DNA of 64,000 bases from an uncultured Chloroflexia bacterium (lineage in GTDB: Bacteria; Chloroflexota; Limnocylindria; Limnocylindrales; CSP1-4), in assembly GCA_963720755.1 (NCBI GenBank), contig CAVRGP010000011.1:32001-96000 (forward strand), in the 5' to 3' direction. Of this stretch, positions 7,576-62,380 are shown piece after piece (within the stretch, counting starts at the first letter, position 1; every line of letters starts with the position of its first letter). Position numbers and translations under genes: made by a program. The notes below the pieces were generated by a model. That model worked only from the letters and a program-made list of their open reading frames with translations. It did no database searches and was not told where the DNA came from.

Positions 7576-7612
7576 GTTTGGCTCCTGGCCTTCTGTCGCG
7601 GATCCGCGACGA

Positions 7613-8011
7613 TCATCGGATGGACTGGACGACCCGCTCGAGGCGGGCTTTCGCGTCCTGCGCCACGGTCTGGATGGCGGGGGCGCCGACGATGCCGAGG
7701 GCGGCCATGGGGTCCATGGCCTCGACGATCGTCTCACTGCCCTCCTCGCGGAGGACGACATTGCAGGGGAGGAGTGTGCCGACCGACGGATCGGCCTCGA
7801 TGGCGCGGTGGGCGAGCGGCGGGTTGCAGGCGCCGAGAATCAGATATGGCGCTTGCTCGATCCCGAGCTTGTCCCGCATCGTCGCCTGGACGTCGATCTC
7901 GGTCAGCACCCCGAACCCCTCAGCCTTGAGGGCGGCGACGACACGCGGCCGAACCTCGGCCACCGTGCCGTGGACGCGGGTCCCGAACGTGAACCCCTGG
8001 GTGGCCGTCAT
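7613..8011 (-). CDS. DUF302-family protein
   Basis: GFGVLTEIDVQAT..ILGACNP..LLPCNVV signature. Confidence 0.85.
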   Translation of the reverse strand: MTATQGFTFGTRVHGTVAEVRPRVVAALKAEGFGVLTEIDVQATMRDKLGIEQAPYLILGACNPPLAHRAIEADPSVGTLLPCNVVLREEGSETIVEAMDPMAALGIVGAPAIQTVAQDAKARLERVVQSIR

Positions 8012-43898: not shown

Positions 43899-43995
43899 GG
43901 GAGCGGTCGGGTCCCGGTGGGTCCCCTGGTCTTCAAAACCAGTGGCGCGGCGCTCGGCGCGGCGCGGTGGGTTCGACTCCCACGCGTTCCCGCCA
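43899..43995 (+). tRNA. selC: tRNA-Sec (anticodon UCA)
   Basis: 6-bp D stem with CGGU loop, CTGGT-CTTCAAA-ACCAG arm, long variable arm, GTGGG-TTCGACT-CCCAC, G discriminator + CCA. Confidence 0.95.
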
Positions 43996-53967: not shown

Positions 53968-55134
53968 ATGCTCAGGATCATCCATACGGCCGATGTCCAC
54001 CTCGGGGCGCGTCATGACGACCTCGGCGAGCAGGCGGCCGCCCAACGGGAACGCCAGTTCGCCGCATTCCAGGCCGCGGTGGACCTCGCCATCACGGAGC
54101 GGGTCGACCTCTTCCTGGTCGCGGGCGACCTGTTCGACTCGAACGTCCAGCCGCGCCGCTCGGTCGAACGCGTCGCCGCCGAGCTCAAGCGTCTGGCCGA
54201 CGTTCGGATCCGATCCGTGATCATCCCGGGCACCCATGACGTCTACGATCGGGCATCCATCTACCGCGCCTACGACCTGCCCGCGATGGCTGGGCTCGGC
54301 CAGGACTCGGACCTGATCACCGTCCTTCACCCGGATCGGTCGTCGGTCCATCTCGCGTCGCTCGACGCGGTGGTGATCGGCAAGGTCTTCGCGACCAAGC
54401 GCGCGCCAGCCAGTCCGCTCCTCGGCATCGGCGCCCTCGCGGATCAGCCCGCAACCTGGCGGATCGGGATGGTCCACGGCTCGATCTCGATCCCGGGCAA
54501 GACGGATCGCGACGAGGTCGTGATCACATCCGAAGAGATCGCCGCAAGCGGGTTCGACTATCTCGCCCTCGGGCACTGGCATTCCGCCCAGGTCGGCAAG
54601 CTCGGGTCCGTGACCTATGCCTACGCGGGCGCGCCGGAAGCGGTCGCCCTGGACCAGGATCGCGCCGGCAAGGTCCTGCTCGTCGAGCTCGAGGAGCGGG
54701 ACGGGCAGCGGTCCGTGACCGTCGAGGAACGGCAGGTGGGCCGGACGAGGTTCCTCAAGCAGGAGATCGATGCCGCCGCCATCGCCAGCCAGCCGGCCCT
54801 GATCACCCTGCTGGCTGCCCACGCGAGCGAGGATCTGGTCCTGGACGCCCGACTCGTCGGCGTTCGGCCGGACGACCTGGACCTGGATCTCACCGAGGTC
54901 GAGGCCGCCCTCGTGACCTCGTTCCTCAAGGTTCGGGTCCGCGACGCATCCGTCCCGGCCCTGACCGAGGGTCCGTTGCCGTCCGAGGACACGATCGCCG
55001 GTGCGTTCATCCGCGACCTCGAAGCACGGATCAAGGCCCTCGAGGCCTCCGGATCCACGGCGGAGGCCGCCGAAGATCGCGACGCTCTGCGCCTTGGGCG
55101 GCTGCTCCTCGCCGGTCACGAGGTGTCCCTGTGA
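53968..55134 (+). CDS. sbcD: SbcD/Mre11-family (YhaO-like) nuclease
   Basis: HTADVHLG, AGDLFD, PGTHD, HG, YLALGHWH, YAGAPE. Confidence 0.85.
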   Translation: MLRIIHTADVHLGARHDDLGEQAAAQRERQFAAFQAAVDLAITERVDLFLVAGDLFDSNVQPRRSVERVAAELKRLADVRIRSVIIPGTHDVYDRASIYRAYDLPAMAGLGQDSDLITVLHPDRSSVHLASLDAVVIGKVFATKRAPASPLLGIGALADQPATWRIGMVHGSISIPGKTDRDEVVITSEEIAASGFDYLALGHWHSAQVGKLGSVTYAYAGAPEAVALDQDRAGKVLLVELEERDGQRSVTVEERQVGRTRFLKQEIDAAAIASQPALITLLAAHASEDLVLDARLVGVRPDDLDLDLTEVEAALVTSFLKVRVRDASVPALTEGPLPSEDTIAGAFIRDLEARIKALEASGSTAEAAEDRDALRLGRLLLAGHEVSL

Positions 55135-57323
55135 GGGTCAGGCGGATCAGCGGTGAGCAGTTCCGTCGATACCCGACATTCGATATCGAACTCGCTCCGG
55201 GGCTGACGGTCGTCCGCGGCCCCAACGAGGCGGGCAAGACGACGATCCAGCGAGCGCTCGAGCTTGCCCTGACCCGGCGCGCGACGAGCACAGCCGCTGA
55301 ACTCGAGGCGCTTCGCCCGTGGGGAGCACCGGCAGATGTCCGCTCCACCATCACGGTCGAGTTCGAGCAGGACGATGAGGATGGCCGCAAGTCCGGGACG
55401 CTCGAGAAGACGTTTGCCGGGGCCCGTGGCACGGTCCGGCTCGATTACGACGGTCAGTCGATCACCGATCCTGCGTTGGCCGATCAGGTCCTCGCGGAGT
55501 TGACCGGCATCCCGACCGAGGGGTTCTTCCGGTCCACGGCGTCGGTCCACCACTTCGAACTGAGTGACCTGTCACGCGACGAGGGTGCGCTGCGCGATCG
55601 TCTCCAGTCATCCATCAGCGGGGCGGACCGGGGGACGAGCCGGGCGCGCAAGAAGCTGGACAAGGCACTCCACGACCTGACCACCAAGGGCGAGCGGAAT
55701 CCCGGCCGCCTCAAGGTCGCAGAGCAGGCGGTCGAGCAGGCTCAGGCAGCCCTGGACCAGGGCGAGCTGGCGCTTGCCCAGCTCGAACGCGACCGGGATG
55801 CGGCGTCGTCGGCGCGCGACCGCCGGACGGAAGTGGAGCTCGCGCTCGCGGAGCGACGCAGCCTGCTGGAGAAGGCTCGTCAGGCTGAGCGTCTGGTGGC
55901 CGAACGCACGGCTGCGAGCGAGCGCTACGAACGCTACCGCCAGGCGGTCGAGGTCGCGGCGGAGCTGGATACGCTCGCCGGTGCGCACCCATCGCCCAAT
56001 CCACTCCCGGTCGTCCGGGCAACGGTGGAGCGCCTGCGCGTGCTCGACGGCCGCGCCCGTGAGCTGCGCGCCGCGTTGGCCGGTGAGGTCGAGGTCTCGT
56101 TCGATGTCGAACCCGAACCGACCTGGCGCCCGTTGTCACGCGTCTCGATCGCGATGGTGGTCATCGGGATCCTCCTTGCGGCCGGTCCGGTCATCCTGAG
56201 TCTCCTGGGGATCACGGGCCAGGTCGTGGTCGTCCAGGCGATCGGCGCCGTCGTCGCGCTGGTCGGCGTGGCCGTCGCCGCTGTTGCCCTGTGGCTGCGT
56301 CGCAGCGACAAGATGCATGCCCAGCTGCGCGACGTGGAGATCGATCGGCGCCTTCGCGGGCGGTCCGAGATCGAGGCGGAACTCCGGGACGTCGAGGCGA
56401 AGACCGCCGGCCAGCTCGGGTCGCTCGGTCTGGCCGACCTCGCCGAGGCCGAGGATCTGCTGGCCCGTGAAGAGGCGCACGTCGCCAAGATCGACCGCCT
56501 GTCGGCGCAACTCGAGGGCCTGGTCGGAAAGGAACCGAGCGAGACGCTGGCTCCCCAACGGGACGCGGCCGCGCTCGAGATCGAGCAGAAGACCAGCGCC
56601 ATCGAGGCGCTCGGACCGATCGCCAAGGAGCCACGGGCGCGGGAGCGGCTCGAGGTGGAGGTCCGCGATCAGGAGGGAGCCCTCGAGAGGGCACGCGACG
56701 ATGAGGCCAACGCGCGCGCCCGGGTCGAGGCCAACGCCGTCGATGCCGAACAGGTCGCCGGACAGGCCGAGCGCCTGGCCGCGTGGCGTGAGCAACTGGC
56801 CGGTGCGCAGCGTCGCCAGCGGGTGTACGCGACCACGCTGGCGGCGATCGATGCCGCGGAGCAGGCCACGATGAAGACCGCCACCAGGTATCTCGAGGCG
56901 CACATGGTCCGCGACCTGGCCGCCGTGACCGGCGGCCGCTACCGTCGAGTGCGGGTCGACGACAAGACGCTGGACATCGAGGTTCGGGCGCCAGAGAAGG
57001 GCGACTGGGTGTCAGTGACGTCCCTGAGCCAGGGGACGCTCGACCTGGTCTACCTCGTCGCTCGGCTCGGCCTGGTCAGGCTCGTCACCGGCGATCGTCG
57101 ACCGCCGCTCGTGTTCGACGATCCGTTCGTGACCCTTGACGACGAGCGGGCGGCTCGGGCCCTCGGCCTGCTCCGGTCGGTCGCGGCCGACTTCCAGGTC
57201 ATCTACCTGACGACTTCGCCGCGCTACGACAAGGCAGCGGACGCCGTCGTCGTCCTCGAGGGACCGACCAGTGTCGATCCGGGTGCCGAGGCCGACGCGG
57301 CACCGCCCTCGAGATCCGCCTGA
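55131..57323 (+). CDS. Rad50/SbcC-like (YhaN-type) ATPase with central transmembrane hairpin
   Basis: GPNEAGKTT, coiled coils, two hydrophobic helices, LSQGT signature, FDDPF. Confidence 0.85.
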   Translation: MRVRRISGEQFRRYPTFDIELAPGLTVVRGPNEAGKTTIQRALELALTRRATSTAAELEALRPWGAPADVRSTITVEFEQDDEDGRKSGTLEKTFAGARGTVRLDYDGQSITDPALADQVLAELTGIPTEGFFRSTASVHHFELSDLSRDEGALRDRLQSSISGADRGTSRARKKLDKALHDLTTKGERNPGRLKVAEQAVEQAQAALDQGELALAQLERDRDAASSARDRRTEVELALAERRSLLEKARQAERLVAERTAASERYERYRQAVEVAAELDTLAGAHPSPNPLPVVRATVERLRVLDGRARELRAALAGEVEVSFDVEPEPTWRPLSRVSIAMVVIGILLAAGPVILSLLGITGQVVVVQAIGAVVALVGVAVAAVALWLRRSDKMHAQLRDVEIDRRLRGRSEIEAELRDVEAKTAGQLGSLGLADLAEAEDLLAREEAHVAKIDRLSAQLEGLVGKEPSETLAPQRDAAALEIEQKTSAIEALGPIAKEPRARERLEVEVRDQEGALERARDDEANARARVEANAVDAEQVAGQAERLAAWREQLAGAQRRQRVYATTLAAIDAAEQATMKTATRYLEAHMVRDLAAVTGGRYRRVRVDDKTLDIEVRAPEKGDWVSVTSLSQGTLDLVYLVARLGLVRLVTGDRRPPLVFDDPFVTLDDERAARALGLLRSVAADFQVIYLTTSPRYDKAADAVVVLEGPTSVDPGAEADAAPPSRSA

Positions 57324-58544: not shown

Positions 58545-59049
58545 TCCTGGACAGTTCGGCTGGGTCGCGCAGCACGATGACGTCGGCGAACCCTTCGTTG
58601 GCAAGTGTCGAGCCTTCGAGTGACGCCCTGAGCTGATCCAGATGTCGACGGACCACGACCGGATCGACGACCCGTGGTCGACCGAGGTTCTGCGCCAGGA
58701 CCACTGCCTCGGGTGGATCGATGACCAATGCGATCGTCGGCAGCTCGGCGTCATCCGCCAGAGCGAGGAGCGCCCGCCGAGCGCGCGCCTGGACGTTGGT
58801 CGCGTCGATCACGGTCAGTCGCCGGGCCGCCAATCGGCCGGCCACAGCTCGGTGAAGGCGTTGGAATGCGGCGCGTGTCGCCGACTGATCCGCTTCGTCG
58901 CCGGACACGATCGACCGGAACCGGTCGGACGACAGGACCTCGTCCGATGCGAAGTGCCCGGCGGCGAACGTGGACTTGCCGGCACCAGCCGCCCCGATCA
59001 GGACGATCAGGCTCGGGTCGGGTACGACGATCTCGCGTCCGTGATCCAT
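58519..59049 (-). CDS. Stand-alone P-loop kinase (AAA_33, Pnkp kinase-domain-like)
   Basis: PDPSLIVLIGAAGAGKSTFA, SSD.FR, RL....LTVIDATN. Confidence 0.8.
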   Translation of the reverse strand: MDHGREIVVPDPSLIVLIGAAGAGKSTFAAGHFASDEVLSSDRFRSIVSGDEADQSATRAAFQRLHRAVAGRLAARRLTVIDATNVQARARRALLALADDAELPTIALVIDPPEAVVLAQNLGRPRVVDPVVVRRHLDQLRASLEGSTLANEGFADVIVLRDPAELSRIRIHRHRS

Positions 59050-59105
59050 CGGGCGATGATGCCCCAGGCGACGTCCGCGAGTCGCCGGCGTGCGAACCAT
59101 GGTCG

Positions 59106-60551
59106 ATGACTGATTCGACAGCGATCGTCTGGTTTCGCCGGGATCTGCGGATCCACGACCACCCGGCTCTTGTCGCGGCGGCCGCGGCGCATCGGACGGT
59201 CGTCCCCTTGTACGTGCTCGACCCGCGCCTGATCGGTGGGCGATCGGCCAGCCCGAATCGAACCTGGTTCCTCCTCGGATCGATCCGTTCGCTCGCATCC
59301 GAACTTGCCGATCGCGGCGCCCCGCTGGTCGTCCGGGTCGGTGATCCGGTGAGCGTCGTGCCGGACGTCGCCGCTGCCGCAGGCGCACACGATGTGTATG
59401 TTTCGCGCGATCACGGGCCGTACGGTCGCGCTCGAGACGCGGCGGTGGCCGGGGCCATCGGGGCGGGACGCCTGCATGCCGAGCCGGGGGTCCTTGTCCA
59501 CGAGCCGGAGACGATCGCTACGCTCGATGGGCGTCCGTTCAGCATCTACTCGCCATTCCGACGGACCTGGGAACGGCGGCTTCGTCGGGCGCCGCTCGCG
59601 TCGCCTGTCCGCCTTGCCGGCCACCGGATCGATCCCGGCACGATCCCGACGCTTGGCGACCTCGACCTCCCCTCATCCCCGACGGCGGATCCGGACCTCC
59701 TGCCCGAACCCGGCGAGGCCGCGGCCCGGCGACGACTCGAGCGGTGGCTGGCCCACGGCATCGATCGCTACGCGACCACCCGCGACCGACTCGACCTGGT
59801 CGACGGCACGTCGCGGCTGTCGGCCGACCTCCACCTGGGTCTCCTGTCCGCCACGGAGGTGGTCGATCGCGCCCTTGGCCCCGGTGATGGCCGACAGCGG
59901 TTCCTCGATCAACTCATCTGGCGTGAGTTCTATGCCCACGTCCTCTTCCACCGACCGGACGTGCGTCGCCGCGAGTTCCGAGCGGATCTCGCGGGCCTCG
60001 CGTGGTCGAACGACGGGGCCGCGTTGGCTGCCTGGCGCGCGGGAACGACCGGCTTTCCGGTCGTGGACGCCGCGATGCGCCAGCTGGCCGCGTGCGGCTG
60101 GATGCACAATCGGGCCAGGATGATCGTCGCCTCGTTCCTGACCAAGGACCTGCTCATCGACTGGCGGGCCGGCGAGGCGCATTTCATGCACCACCTGGTG
60201 GACGGCGATCTCGCCTCGAACAACGGGGGCTGGCAGTGGGCCGCCTCGACCGGGACGGATCCGCAGCCGTACTTCAGGATCTTCAATCCCGTCCTGCAGG
60301 GCCGAACCCACGATCCGCATGGCGAATATGTCCGACGCTGGGTGCCCGAGCTCCGGAACGTCCCACCCGAGCACATCCATGCTCCATGGGAGATGACCGA
60401 GGTGGTGGCACGGCGGTCCGGGGTCCAGGTCGGGTCGGACTACCCGGCCCCGATCGTCGATCACGCCGATGCCCGCGCGCGGGCGTTGGCCGCCTACCGA
60501 CTGGCGCGGTCTGTCCACAGCTCGTCCACATCGGCCACCGAATGGGGATAA
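59106..60551 (+). CDS. phrB: Class I CPD DNA photolyase
   Basis: WFRRDLRIHDHPAL, TSRLS..L..G, LIWREFY, GWMHNRARMIVASFLTKDL, SNNGGWQW, YFRIFNP. Confidence 0.93.
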   Translation: MTDSTAIVWFRRDLRIHDHPALVAAAAAHRTVVPLYVLDPRLIGGRSASPNRTWFLLGSIRSLASELADRGAPLVVRVGDPVSVVPDVAAAAGAHDVYVSRDHGPYGRARDAAVAGAIGAGRLHAEPGVLVHEPETIATLDGRPFSIYSPFRRTWERRLRRAPLASPVRLAGHRIDPGTIPTLGDLDLPSSPTADPDLLPEPGEAAARRRLERWLAHGIDRYATTRDRLDLVDGTSRLSADLHLGLLSATEVVDRALGPGDGRQRFLDQLIWREFYAHVLFHRPDVRRREFRADLAGLAWSNDGAALAAWRAGTTGFPVVDAAMRQLAACGWMHNRARMIVASFLTKDLLIDWRAGEAHFMHHLVDGDLASNNGGWQWAASTGTDPQPYFRIFNPVLQGRTHDPHGEYVRRWVPELRNVPPEHIHAPWEMTEVVARRSGVQVGSDYPAPIVDHADARARALAAYRLARSVHSSSTSATEWG

Positions 60552-60584
60552 CTTCCGCGGTGTTTGGACCGATTTCGTGGACAA
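60511..60584. promoter_or_regulatory. Cluster of four DnaA-box-like 9-mers
   Basis: CTGTCCACA 60511, TCGTCCACA 60522, reverse TTATCCCCA 60543-51, reverse TTGTCCACG 60576-84; each one mismatch from TT(A/G)TCCACA. Confidence 0.55.
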
Positions 60585-60625
60585 CCCCGTTGTGGTGCCC
60601 CCATGGCGGGCCGTATATTTCTCTT

Positions 60626-60806
60626 GCCCGAAGGGGCAGGTTGAACCGCCAGACCGGTCAGGGGAGCGATCCTCAGGACGGTCCCGGGAACCAGGTTCGC
60701 AGGTCGCAAGGCCCGCGAGCGAGGGACTCGGCGACGACCAGGGACTGTGGACTTGTTCGCAGCCTCAGGACCCGTCGAACGGAGGTCCCCACCAGTTCCT
60801 TCGGGC
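60626..60806 (+). ncRNA. Candidate rod-shaped structured RNA (6S/Ms1-like)
   Basis: TTGTGG-18-TATATT promoter; 5' and 3' ends pair; internal stems; apical GCAA tetraloop. Confidence 0.55.
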
Positions 60807-60816
60807 GTTTCCATGC

Positions 60817-60858
60817 GCCCGGCACGGCCCCCAGCCGCCCGGCACGGCCCACAACCGC
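60817..60858. repeat. 20-nt tandem duplication
   Basis: GCCCGGCACGGCCCCCAGCC / GCCCGGCACGGCCCACAACC. Confidence 0.7.
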
Positions 60859-61090
60859 GTGGTCTCTGCCGCTGAGTATCCTCGTTCGTGTTCGGCTACA
60901 CCACAGGCCACATCTTCGCCAGCTACACATGGGGCTCGTGCCTGACACGGATCGGACGTCCAACGAGGCCGCCGGAACGACCGAGGGCGGTAGGCGTCCG
61001 CAGAAGACGAACCATGCTGCTATCTGGCGAGGACCCCGGACCAGTCGGGATCCTGGGCAGCATCCTCGCGACTTCCGCTAGTCTCCGCAG

Positions 61091-62380
61091 GTGCCCACGA
61101 CCTTGACCGAGCCCGATCTCGCCACGCCCCGCGCCGGGCAGGATTGGCGGATCCTCGTCGCCGTCTTCTGGGTCACCTCGATGGTCGAAGGCCTCGGCGT
61201 CAGCCAGATCTTCGCGCTGCTGCCGTCCTACCTGCACCAGATGGGCGTCCCGGACAGCCAGCGGCTCACGTTCATCGGGATCTTCAGTGCCCTGATCTTC
61301 GTGGTCGGGATGCCGCTCGTCCCGGTGTGGGGCGCCTGGGCCGACAAGTACAGCCGGAAGGTCGTCATCGTCCGGAGCGCCATCGTCGAGGCGGTCGTAC
61401 TCGCCGCAGTCGCCCTGGCCCGCGAACCCTGGCAGGTCGCACTGGCGATGCTCCTCGTCGGCCTCCAGCTGGGCAATACGGGCATCATGCTGGCGGGGAT
61501 CCGAGACGTGACGCCGCGCCGACGGCTGGGCACGACGATCGCCCTGTTCGGCGCGTCCGGCCCGGTCGGGTTCGCCGTCGGCCCGGCCCTGGCCGGCATC
61601 CTGATCGACGGTTTCGGCTGGGCCATCCCGGCGGTCTTCGGTTTCTCGGCCCTCCTGTCCGTCGGGACCGCGGTGCTGGTCACCTTCGGTTCGAAGGAGA
61701 TCCGTCCCGAGGTCGTGCCGACCGGCCGGATCGTGGACCTCGCCTTCTCGTCGCTCCGCGGCGTCCTAACCGACAAGGCCACGCGACGGATCTTCACGAT
61801 CTTCGGCATCTCGTTCGTGGCGATCCAGATGAGCCGGCCGTACATCCCGATCCTGGTCGAGGGGATCAACGGGCTCGGTCCCGGACTGGCGTCCGCGATC
61901 GCGCTGGTCGCCGGGACGGGGGCGCTGGTCGGGGCGCTCGTCTCACCGCTCGGCGGGGTCATCGGCGATCGGATCGGCTTCCGGCCGGTGCTCATCGCCG
62001 CTCTCGGCGGCGCCAGTGTCGTGCTGTTCACGATGCCACTGGTCGGGTCGATCGGGGTCCTGGCCCTGCTGGCGGTCGGGCTCGGGGCGGCGACCGCGAC
62101 CGTCAGCTCGATGATCTTCGGGTTGCTCGCCACGGAGCTCCCGCCGGAGCGCCGCTCCGCCGCGCTCAATCTCGTCTACCTGCCGCTCTATGCCGCCGGG
62201 ATCATCGGACCGGCCGCCGGCGCGCTGATCGCGTCGGTCAGCGGGGTCCACGGGCTGTTCGTCGCCGCATCGGCGGTGTTCCTGTTCGGCGCCATCACGA
62301 TCTGGCTGCGGCGCAACCCGGCGGTGAGCCCGCACCACGTCGCCGCCTCGGAACTGCCGCCGACACCCGTCGAGTTCTGA
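61091..62380 (+). CDS. DHA1-type MFS transporter
   Basis: 12 TMs; PVWGAWADKYSRK, GPALAG, GG.IGDRIG. Confidence 0.9.
   Translation: MPTTLTEPDLATPRAGQDWRILVAVFWVTSMVEGLGVSQIFALLPSYLHQMGVPDSQRLTFIGIFSALIFVVGMPLVPVWGAWADKYSRKVVIVRSAIVEAVVLAAVALAREPWQVALAMLLVGLQLGNTGIMLAGIRDVTPRRRLGTTIALFGASGPVGFAVGPALAGILIDGFGWAIPAVFGFSALLSVGTAVLVTFGSKEIRPEVVPTGRIVDLAFSSLRGVLTDKATRRIFTIFGISFVAIQMSRPYIPILVEGINGLGPGLASAIALVAGTGALVGALVSPLGGVIGDRIGFRPVLIAALGGASVVLFTMPLVGSIGVLALLAVGLGAATATVSSMIFGLLATELPPERRSAALNLVYLPLYAAGIIGPAAGALIASVSGVHGLFVAASAVFLFGAITIWLRRNPAVSPHHVAASELPPTPVEF

Follow-up and report, generated by a model that had tools for sequence, protein, structure and literature searches.

The 64,000-nucleotide stretch of DNA analysed here, referred to as the window, belongs to the 3.0-Mb genome (93.6% complete) of an uncultured soil bacterium of the phylum Chloroflexota, class Limnocylindria; the host is not an actinobacterium. 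A 539-base gap in this window separates an upstream photolyase gene (58728–60551; Pfam FAD_binding_7 and DNA_photolyase) from a downstream MFS_1 transporter gene (61091–62380, + strand, Pfam). Within the gap lies the gene for a structured RNA of about 181–182 nucleotides (nt) on the + strand (60626–60807). A reading of this DNA made from its letters alone (the sequence-only reading) had proposed a 6S/Ms1-like RNA here, folded as a rod and placed under DnaA control. Its claim that a structured RNA gene, unannotated and with a promoter of its own, lies here is borne out, and the RNA is present in contigs assembled from RNA libraries, which cover 60621–60810. We consider it highly probable that the locus encodes a real, independent structured RNA. 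The family to which this RNA belongs is undescribed, with no Rfam family and no account found in the literature searched.

Architecture of the RNA

The first and last bases of the RNA are joined by a 15-base-pair (bp) clamp, P1, which encloses three hairpins. The 5′ strand of the clamp, GCCCGAAGGGGC-A-GGT (60626–60641, + strand), pairs with the 3′ strand, ACC-A-GTTCCTTCGGGC (60791–60806, + strand), through 12 bp, an A·A mismatch and a further 3 bp. This helix was correctly recognized at the outset and is 99.3% paired in 29 distinct same-genus sequences. All enclosed elements are read from the + strand. The junction strand J1/2 (60642–60658), of near-invariant sequence GAACCGCCAG, leads into hairpin P2 (60659–60676), a GA-GNRA-UC module (GGGGA-GCGA-UCCUC). 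Hairpin P3 (60684–60731) is a long arm with internal loops and a GCAA cap, hairpin P4 (60732–60777) is an arm with a CUUG cap, and junction strand J4/1 (60778–60790) lies between P4 and the 3′ strand of the clamp. The clamp is followed by a U-run, the + strand tail GUUUCC (60807–60812; GCUUUCGUGUG in relatives), which is presumed to be a termination signal. Across all paralogues and genera the post-clamp tail (60807–60820) is kept as GYUUUCGUGUG, which exceeds what a U-run needs, and this tail and the flank of the −50 box described below have TTCGTG in common.

Folding of the + strand gave a free energy of −96.8 kcal/mol and a z score of −2.73, with 1 of 200 shuffled sequences equally good. 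The fold of the − strand was unremarkable (z −0.78; 43 of 200 shuffles equally good), and two tandem G·U pairs in the clamp assign the pairing to the + strand RNA. The sequence-only reading had stated that no credible open frame covers the RNA. Long open frames do overlap this stretch, as is expected in DNA of high G+C content. However, 1- and 2-base insertions and deletions together with paired substitutions in the alignment leave the coding reading unsupported.

Conservation and covariation

A DNA search of 61 related genomes found near-full-length copies of the RNA, 75–93% identical, in 32 of 36 same-genus genomes; the four genomes without a copy are 59–89% complete. Each genome carries one copy, the source genome included, with the exception of one genome (G035) that has two. 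At least four further genera keep the RNA. The conserved block extends from 60574 to the clamp and tail and ends within about 15 bases past the clamp.

Covariation was scored on two alignments. The first, A1, comprises 30 same-genus copies, of which 29 distinct sequences were scored, and was not fitted to the branched model. A covariance model, R1, was built from A1 (it scores the RNA of the window at 209.8 bits) and then aligned 46 copies from at least five genera to give the second, A2. On A1, the branched model (P1, P2, P3 and P4) has 98.1% of its cells paired and 13 compensatory pairs, versus 1–3 in slid controls. On A2, which was fitted to the model and so favours this structure, 95.7% of cells are paired and compensatory changes are seen at 28 of 49 pairs, with a covariation score of 0.352 versus at most 0.091 when the structure is slid. 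Taken singly, P2 is 95.6% paired (A1) with compensatory changes at five of its seven pairs (A2), P3 is 98.9% paired (A1), and all 11 pairs of P4 are compensatory (A2). Covariation of the clamp within the genus consists of one GAU/AUC swap in the 3-bp extension (row L013); beyond the genus, A-U to G-C and G-C to U-A swaps are found in paralogues and in a sister family. A column-by-column, all-against-all covariation scan was dominated by phylogenetic noise and yielded no usable pseudoknot.

The rod was scored on A1 in the same way and was rejected. As a whole structure it is 90.4% paired, with seven pairs that change on both sides versus one or two when slid, and just two of its helices are upheld, the clamp and the apical hairpin. 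The apical hairpin (GUUCGC-GGUC-GCAA-GGCC-GCGAGC) is 94.5% paired with three pairs changed on both sides, in agreement with the sequence-only reading. The three helices specific to the rod interior are poorly kept in relatives (76.7–84.4% paired): the GAGCGA/UUGUUC helix is 83.9% paired and the GGACC/GGUCC hairpin 84.4%, both with zero compensatory changes, and the ACGGUCCC/GGGACUGU helix is 76.7% paired, with two pairs open in 22 and 15 of the 29 sequences. P3 and P4, the hairpins that compete with the rod helices, are 93–100% paired with compensatory changes. An alternative pairing of the 3′ arm with CGCCCG (60816–60821) had also been suggested; that sequence is specific to the window and is not kept by relatives. 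Covariation favours a four-way branched fold over the rod.

Transcripts in RNA libraries

Four RNA-library runs from four studies (20 runs were listed, 8 of them RNA), with soil, sediment and plant as sample types, were compared with 60450–61000, and contigs of at least 85% identity were retained. The contigs on 60621–60810 numbered 154, 2430, 5 and 268 in the four libraries; being assembled contigs, these data carry neither strand nor level, and the libraries may hold DNA. Contig pieces tile the whole RNA (for example 60625–60699, 60643–60741, 60699–60797 and 60719–60803). At the 5′ side, sequencing adapter abuts 60625 in three contigs (X8). At the 3′ side, adapter begins after 60803 (X12, X15), one X12 contig has a poly(A) run after 60807, and the listed contig pieces stop at 60803–60807. 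In three of the four runs no contig continues into unlike sequence. The flanks 60450–60620 and 60811–61000 had no contig cover in any of the four runs, which shows little, the contigs coming from relatives with differing flanks. Single-contig k-mer depth reached about 8,755×, depth being a poor measure of level. RNA libraries thus contain discrete molecules whose two ends fall at the clamp.

Promoter and DnaA-box-like sites

The RNA is preceded on the + strand by a −35-like TTGTGG (60590–60595), of which TTG is conserved, and, after an 18-nt spacer, by the −10 hexamer TATATT (60614–60619; TACATT, TATCGT or TATGGT in relatives). As the sequence-only reading had it, the GCCCG at the start of the RNA (60626) begins at the seventh base downstream of the hexamer. 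A scanner called a terminator-like hairpin at 60586–60610. This hairpin, situated in the promoter spacer and not kept in relatives, was set aside as chance.

Upstream of the −35 region stand four DnaA-box-like sites, defined here as 9-mers within one mismatch of TT[AG]TCCAC[AG], with distances counted from the RNA start. Their occupancy was followed across 60 homologous loci, 28 from the same genus and 32 from other genera. The −50 box, TTGTCCACG on the − strand (CGTGGACAA on the + strand; 60576–60584), lies beside the −35 region and is occupied in 60 of 60 loci. The −83 box, TTATCCCCA on the − strand (60543–60551), overlaps the photolyase stop codon and is occupied in 56 of 60. Farther upstream on the + strand are TCGTCCACA at −104/−105 (60522–60530; 28 of 60) and CTGTCCACA at −115/−116 (60511–60519; 42 of 60), the latter within the 3′ end of the photolyase gene. 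The −50 box is 33 bp from the −83 box, which is 21–22 bp from the −104/−105 box, which in turn is 11 bp from the −116 box; these spacings of 11, 22 and 33 bp place the four sites on one helix face. Elsewhere in the interval from −250 to +10, box matches number only 10 across the 60 loci.

The 3.0-Mb genome holds 1297 such 9-mers, and clusters of at least three within 110 bp occur at only five places: the dnaA–dnaN gap, the promoter of this RNA, the promoter of a second RNA of the same family (paralogue #2, see below), a region upstream of nrdJ, and one doubtful palindrome. The dnaA gene (C2:121931–123841) is followed by dnaN (Pfam), and the gap between them (C2:123842–124203; L248 2515–2876), with about eight box-like sites, is likely to be the replication origin. 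The first four boxes of the gap point in one direction and the next four in the opposite one, and an A+T-richer stretch follows. The array at nrdJ, the gene for a class II ribonucleotide reductase, lies about 300–370 nt upstream of the gene (C11:351622–351705; L245 about 7600–7710) with spacings of 32, 22 and 21 bp.

With boxes of the origin type that are clustered and kept in position in 28–60 of the 60 loci, the RNA promoter falls within an operational definition of the DnaA regulon. We infer that DnaA reads these boxes. The sequence-only reading had placed the RNA under DnaA control; the sites themselves, four positionally conserved and phased 9-mers that match the boxes of the dnaA–dnaN gap, are there, and control by DnaA is, judged from them, probable.

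A family of clamp-framed RNAs

R1 also matched RNAs of about 92–100, 142, 160, 173 and 289 nt. Their common features are limited to the clamp (GCCCGAAGGGGC...GUUCCUUCGGGC), the GYUUUCGUGUG tail that follows it, the promoter and the box. The interiors differ widely, with lengths from about 50 to more than 260 nt, and are structured throughout. The same frame, in which a box promoter precedes a folded RNA with the GCCCGAAGGGGC/GUUCCUUCGGGC clamp at its ends and a U-run behind it, was found at three loci of the source genome, 60626–60807 included. The other two RNAs are paralogue #2, of 77 nt (C11:298693–298769; L246 2194–2270), between moaA and a PNP_UDP_1 nucleoside phosphorylase gene, and one of 81 nt (C15:544934–545014; L247 2435–2515), between hflX and a gene for a PLP-dependent enzyme. 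Neither short paralogue has an Rfam match at E≤0.01, and in other genera the two loci hold versions of 190–205 nt. Any further exact copies of a clamp strand in the source genome are isolated and due to chance.

Among other genomes of the family, R1 matched 67 of 108, and the exact clamp pattern was found in 41 of 62. R1 had no match in 42 genomes of a small-genome sister family, the clamp pattern was absent from four other families of the class (138 genomes), and a control with the reversed clamp pattern gave zero matches. In a further family, f3, R1 matches occur in 4 of 41 genomes; at the four loci examined, in three of these genomes, the boxes are present and the terminal G-C of the clamp is swapped to U-A. 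The A-U to G-C swap lies inside the clamp of two paralogues. Of three weak model matches in 38 genomes of another family of the class, f45, the two inspected were rejected, being without clamp and boxes. Among the public-genome matches listed there are at least 42 full frames at no fewer than 38 loci, 41 of the 42 with the −50 box, and the contigs that carry full frames are labelled as Limnocylindrales, Chloroflexia, Chloroflexota or Anaerolinea-type metagenome-assembled genomes. That scan used a 17-base pattern; 83 of at least 121 loci are chance matches without a frame in other phyla, and it is no census.

Two short RNA types have features of their own. RNAs of the paralogue #2 type (C11:298693–298769; L082–L093) have a conserved loop motif, GAGAUCACAUCAAGG, or GAUCACCUCAA in some relatives, which presumably resembles the 3′ end of 16S rRNA. 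This loop could be an anti-Shine-Dalgarno mimic, or the resemblance could be coincidence. In one paralogue type of about 83 nt (L099–L101, L104), a 10–12-base string, AUCUAGUGAUC, is found once on either strand of the rod, and its copies would lie opposite one another in a symmetric UAGU/UAGU internal loop with tandem G·A pairs.

Comparison with known RNAs

Rfam 15 has no match inside the RNA at E≤10 (60400–61200 searched), the 6S, SRP, raiA and Chloroflexi-1 (RF01698) families included. The sequence-only reading had put forward 6S, Ms1, raiA and SRP for such a check, and no family matches. The two nearby matches, mir-4878 (E 0.41, 60464–60536) and CRISPR-DR15 (E 5, 61116–61153), lie outside the RNA and were dismissed as chance. 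The Chloroflexi-1 motif of a 2010 survey (RF01698) is restricted to Chloroflexus aggregans. Literature searches for Limnocylindria small RNAs and Chloroflexi structured noncoding RNAs did not turn up this RNA, and those for DnaA-box-driven small RNAs found no description. A bacterial Y RNA, which usually has the gene for its TROVE (Ro60/Rsr) protein as a neighbour, was rejected: no such protein (PF05731) was found in the source genome, 93.6% complete.

The organization of the family recalls that of several known sets of small RNAs. OmrA/OmrB, Qrr1-5, the csRNAs and RsmX/Y/Z are paralogous small RNAs with a shared regulated promoter, conserved ends and divergent middles, and they act via short single-stranded seeds or GGA loops, with Hfq or CsrA. 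As in these sets, the clamp-framed RNAs have several genes per genome, the same sites and promoter, conserved termini and divergent middles. They differ in that their ends pair into an invariant clamp, that their interiors are structured throughout and that DnaA is the presumed regulator. The raiA-motif RNA and OLE are comparable in being of about 200 nt, with a multi-stem junction, covariation, their own promoter and terminator, and function unknown. There is no sequence or model similarity to either and they belong to another phylum, and the DnaA-box module and clamp common to paralogues set the present RNA apart. DnaA-box arrays beside a promoter, as here, are found at sda and dnaA of B. 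subtilis and at nrdAB of E. coli, the last of which has a further parallel in the boxes upstream of a ribonucleotide reductase gene in this genome; the product here is a family of structured RNAs and not a protein. CcnA is a cell-cycle small RNA of Caulobacter.

Proposed role and alternatives

The evidence leans toward an independent, stable and trans-acting structured RNA that belongs to a DnaA-controlled paralogous family and may bind a protein. Occupancy of the phased boxes by DnaA would set the rate of a sigma-A-type promoter (TTGTGG, 18 nt, TATATT), and the level of the RNA would thereby report the status of replication initiation. The clamp would form as its 3′ strand emerges from the polymerase and would act together with the U-run as an intrinsic terminator. 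Trimming would then leave a blunt, closed, exonuclease-resistant RNA that accumulates. The conserved junction and the arms capped by GNRA and CUUG loops would give a compact fold suited to binding a protein, or possibly a ligand, rather than to pairing with mRNAs. In a target search, complements of four conserved loop and junction motifs gave scattered matches inside genes and none at a gene start. The family as a whole would form an RNA arm of the DnaA regulon.

Several points weigh against this interpretation. That the RNA acts by binding a protein is a tentative proposal, more doubtful than the rest, which draws on its architecture. The local pairing of J1/2 varies among relatives and two consensus folds disagree there. 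The 3′ end marked by poly(A) comes from a single contig, and the limits of the contig data and of the fitted alignment given above apply as well. A consensus promoter scanner called no sigma-70 site at the RNA promoter, the −105 and −116 boxes are less conserved than the two nearer ones, and nrdJ arrays of at least three boxes occur in only 7 of 23 family genomes. Another factor could read the boxes, as the case for DnaA rests on their identity with boxes near dnaA. The persistent MFS neighbour and the failure to find a canonical 6S RNA in the class, both taken up below, belong here too.

If the sequence-only reading were right in kind, the RNA would be the functional 6S or Ms1-like RNA of the class, binding and sequestering RNA polymerase according to growth state despite an unusual fold. 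Like 6S (SsrS, RF00013), the RNA is about 180 nt long and has a long closing stem of its 5′ and 3′ ends, its own promoter and high k-mer depth in RNA libraries. 6S binds the sigma-70 holoenzyme and templates product RNAs, and Ms1 binds the RNA polymerase core. The source genome has SRP RNA, RNase P RNA and tmRNA at other loci, and RF00013 has no match in the window at the gathering score and none in the whole genome even at E≤10; among Chloroflexota, RF00013 matches 29 of 121 genomes and none of the 13 searched from this class (f1 0/3, f3 0/9 and the source genome). The structure itself argues otherwise. The closing stem is present, and the helices that would flank a central bubble are the poorly paired ones of the rod, with many broken cells, so that a four-way branch takes the place of the 6S rod, without a covariance-model match. 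The canonical 6S RNAs of other Chloroflexota and this RNA have no common sequence, clamp or boxes; a DnaA-box array upstream and short paralogues with the same clamp distinguish it further, and paralogues of 77–81 nt with this clamp and promoter could not mimic an open promoter. Ms1 resembles it in being a small structured RNA for which an action on the transcription machinery has been proposed (PMC9130861 and PMC4191392). Ms1 is about 230–300 nt long and actinobacterial, and lies between genes for a HAD-IB hydrolase (SerB-like) and an oxidoreductase (PMC9130861); the RNA here is about 181 nt long and from Chloroflexota, with photolyase and MFS neighbours, no Rfam match, and no such hydrolase/oxidoreductase neighbourhood at its locus. 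We therefore regard a 6S or Ms1 function as improbable. The functional unit might also be the DNA, with a DnaA-box cluster that titrates or remodels DnaA and a secondary RNA. The datA and DARS sites of E. coli and the DnaA-box clusters of B. subtilis titrate or remodel DnaA, and the present promoter, with its helical phasing, and that of paralogue #2 are two of just five places in the genome where at least three boxes cluster. Against a purely DNA-based function stand the strong selection on RNA structure seen in the 28 compensatory pairs, the tandem G·U pairs, which work only in the + strand RNA, and the presence of the RNA in libraries. The two roles are compatible, and a DNA unit with the RNA as an accessory is quite improbable.

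The gene order raises the further possibility of a cis-acting 5′ leader of the MFS gene, a riboswitch or attenuator whose clamp would be a switchable terminator. Among 30 same-genus loci, 26 have the MFS gene downstream of the RNA on the same strand, while the upstream gene varies (the photolyase gene is there in 4 of 30); the gap is only 51–66 nt in nine of the 26, and the conserved junction nucleotides are akin to an aptamer core. We provisionally put the adjacency within the genus down to retained gene order. Outside the genus, none of 34 loci has the photolyase gene or this MFS gene nearby. At ten annotated loci the orthologues stand beside ParB-like, thymidine kinase/NUDIX, Cpn60, PPase or PNP genes, and one of the ten has an unrelated MFS_1 gene downstream; several distant matches have moaA, phosphorylase or GTPase neighbours and were on that ground assigned to the other two paralogues as long versions. 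The paralogues with the same clamp and promoter likewise precede unrelated genes. Over the 26 loci the gap ranges from 51 to 468 nt, and in 22 of them a −10-like hexamer TAGkCT stands at the MFS start, typically 6–7 nt before the GTG or ATG (in the window TAGTCT, 61079–61084, + strand, outside the RNA and 6 nt before the GTG), a placement that points to a leaderless MFS transcript, made separately from its own promoter. RNA contig pieces stop at the clamp, and adapters or poly(A) adjoin them at that point. Neither the same class of downstream gene across taxa nor continuous transcripts, as a leader would show, were found. Turnover of neighbours, the variable gap and the hexamer at the MFS start make a cis-acting role very improbable.

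To our knowledge, no regulatory RNA is known from Limnocylindria-type Chloroflexota, which are common in soil and sediment and lack a genetic system. Should DnaA truly drive the trans-acting RNA favoured here, replication initiation would be directly linked to riboregulation. The clamp family would also be a natural 'same frame, different cargo' set in which termination and stability conferred by the clamp could be addressed. What replaces 6S RNA in Limnocylindria is a question that these data raise. In a bolder version, which we hold to be unlikely, DnaA would directly drive a clamp-closed RNA family that carries replication status to another core machine, and the member of about 181 nt would stand in for 6S, as a functional replacement of new structure, in a class where canonical 6S is not detectable. 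Such an RNA, signalling from DnaA to RNA polymerase (or the ribosome), would have no described counterpart.

Other features of the window and genome

Upstream of the photolyase gene lies a gene for an SbcC/Rad50-like ATPase (55131–57323, + strand; AAA_23, SMC_N, SbcC_Walker_B), so that the RNA adjoins DNA-repair genes in the source genome. The spacer between the RNA and the MFS gene is 284 nt in the window versus 51–66 nt in the nine relatives mentioned above. Directly after the RNA, a 14-base direct repeat, GCCCGGCACGGCCC, occurs twice at 60817–60850, 20 bases apart; it lies within spacer that is not common to relatives. In several relatives (for example G158, G139, G426, G095, G136, G069 and G061), the nrdJ match is split into pieces about 1.1–1.3 kb apart within one open frame of 1,340–2,790 amino acids, which looks like an intein insertion. 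The sole match of the whole window to Rfam 15 at the gathering score is a selenocysteine tRNA gene at 43899–43991 (+ strand; RF01852, 65.5 bits).

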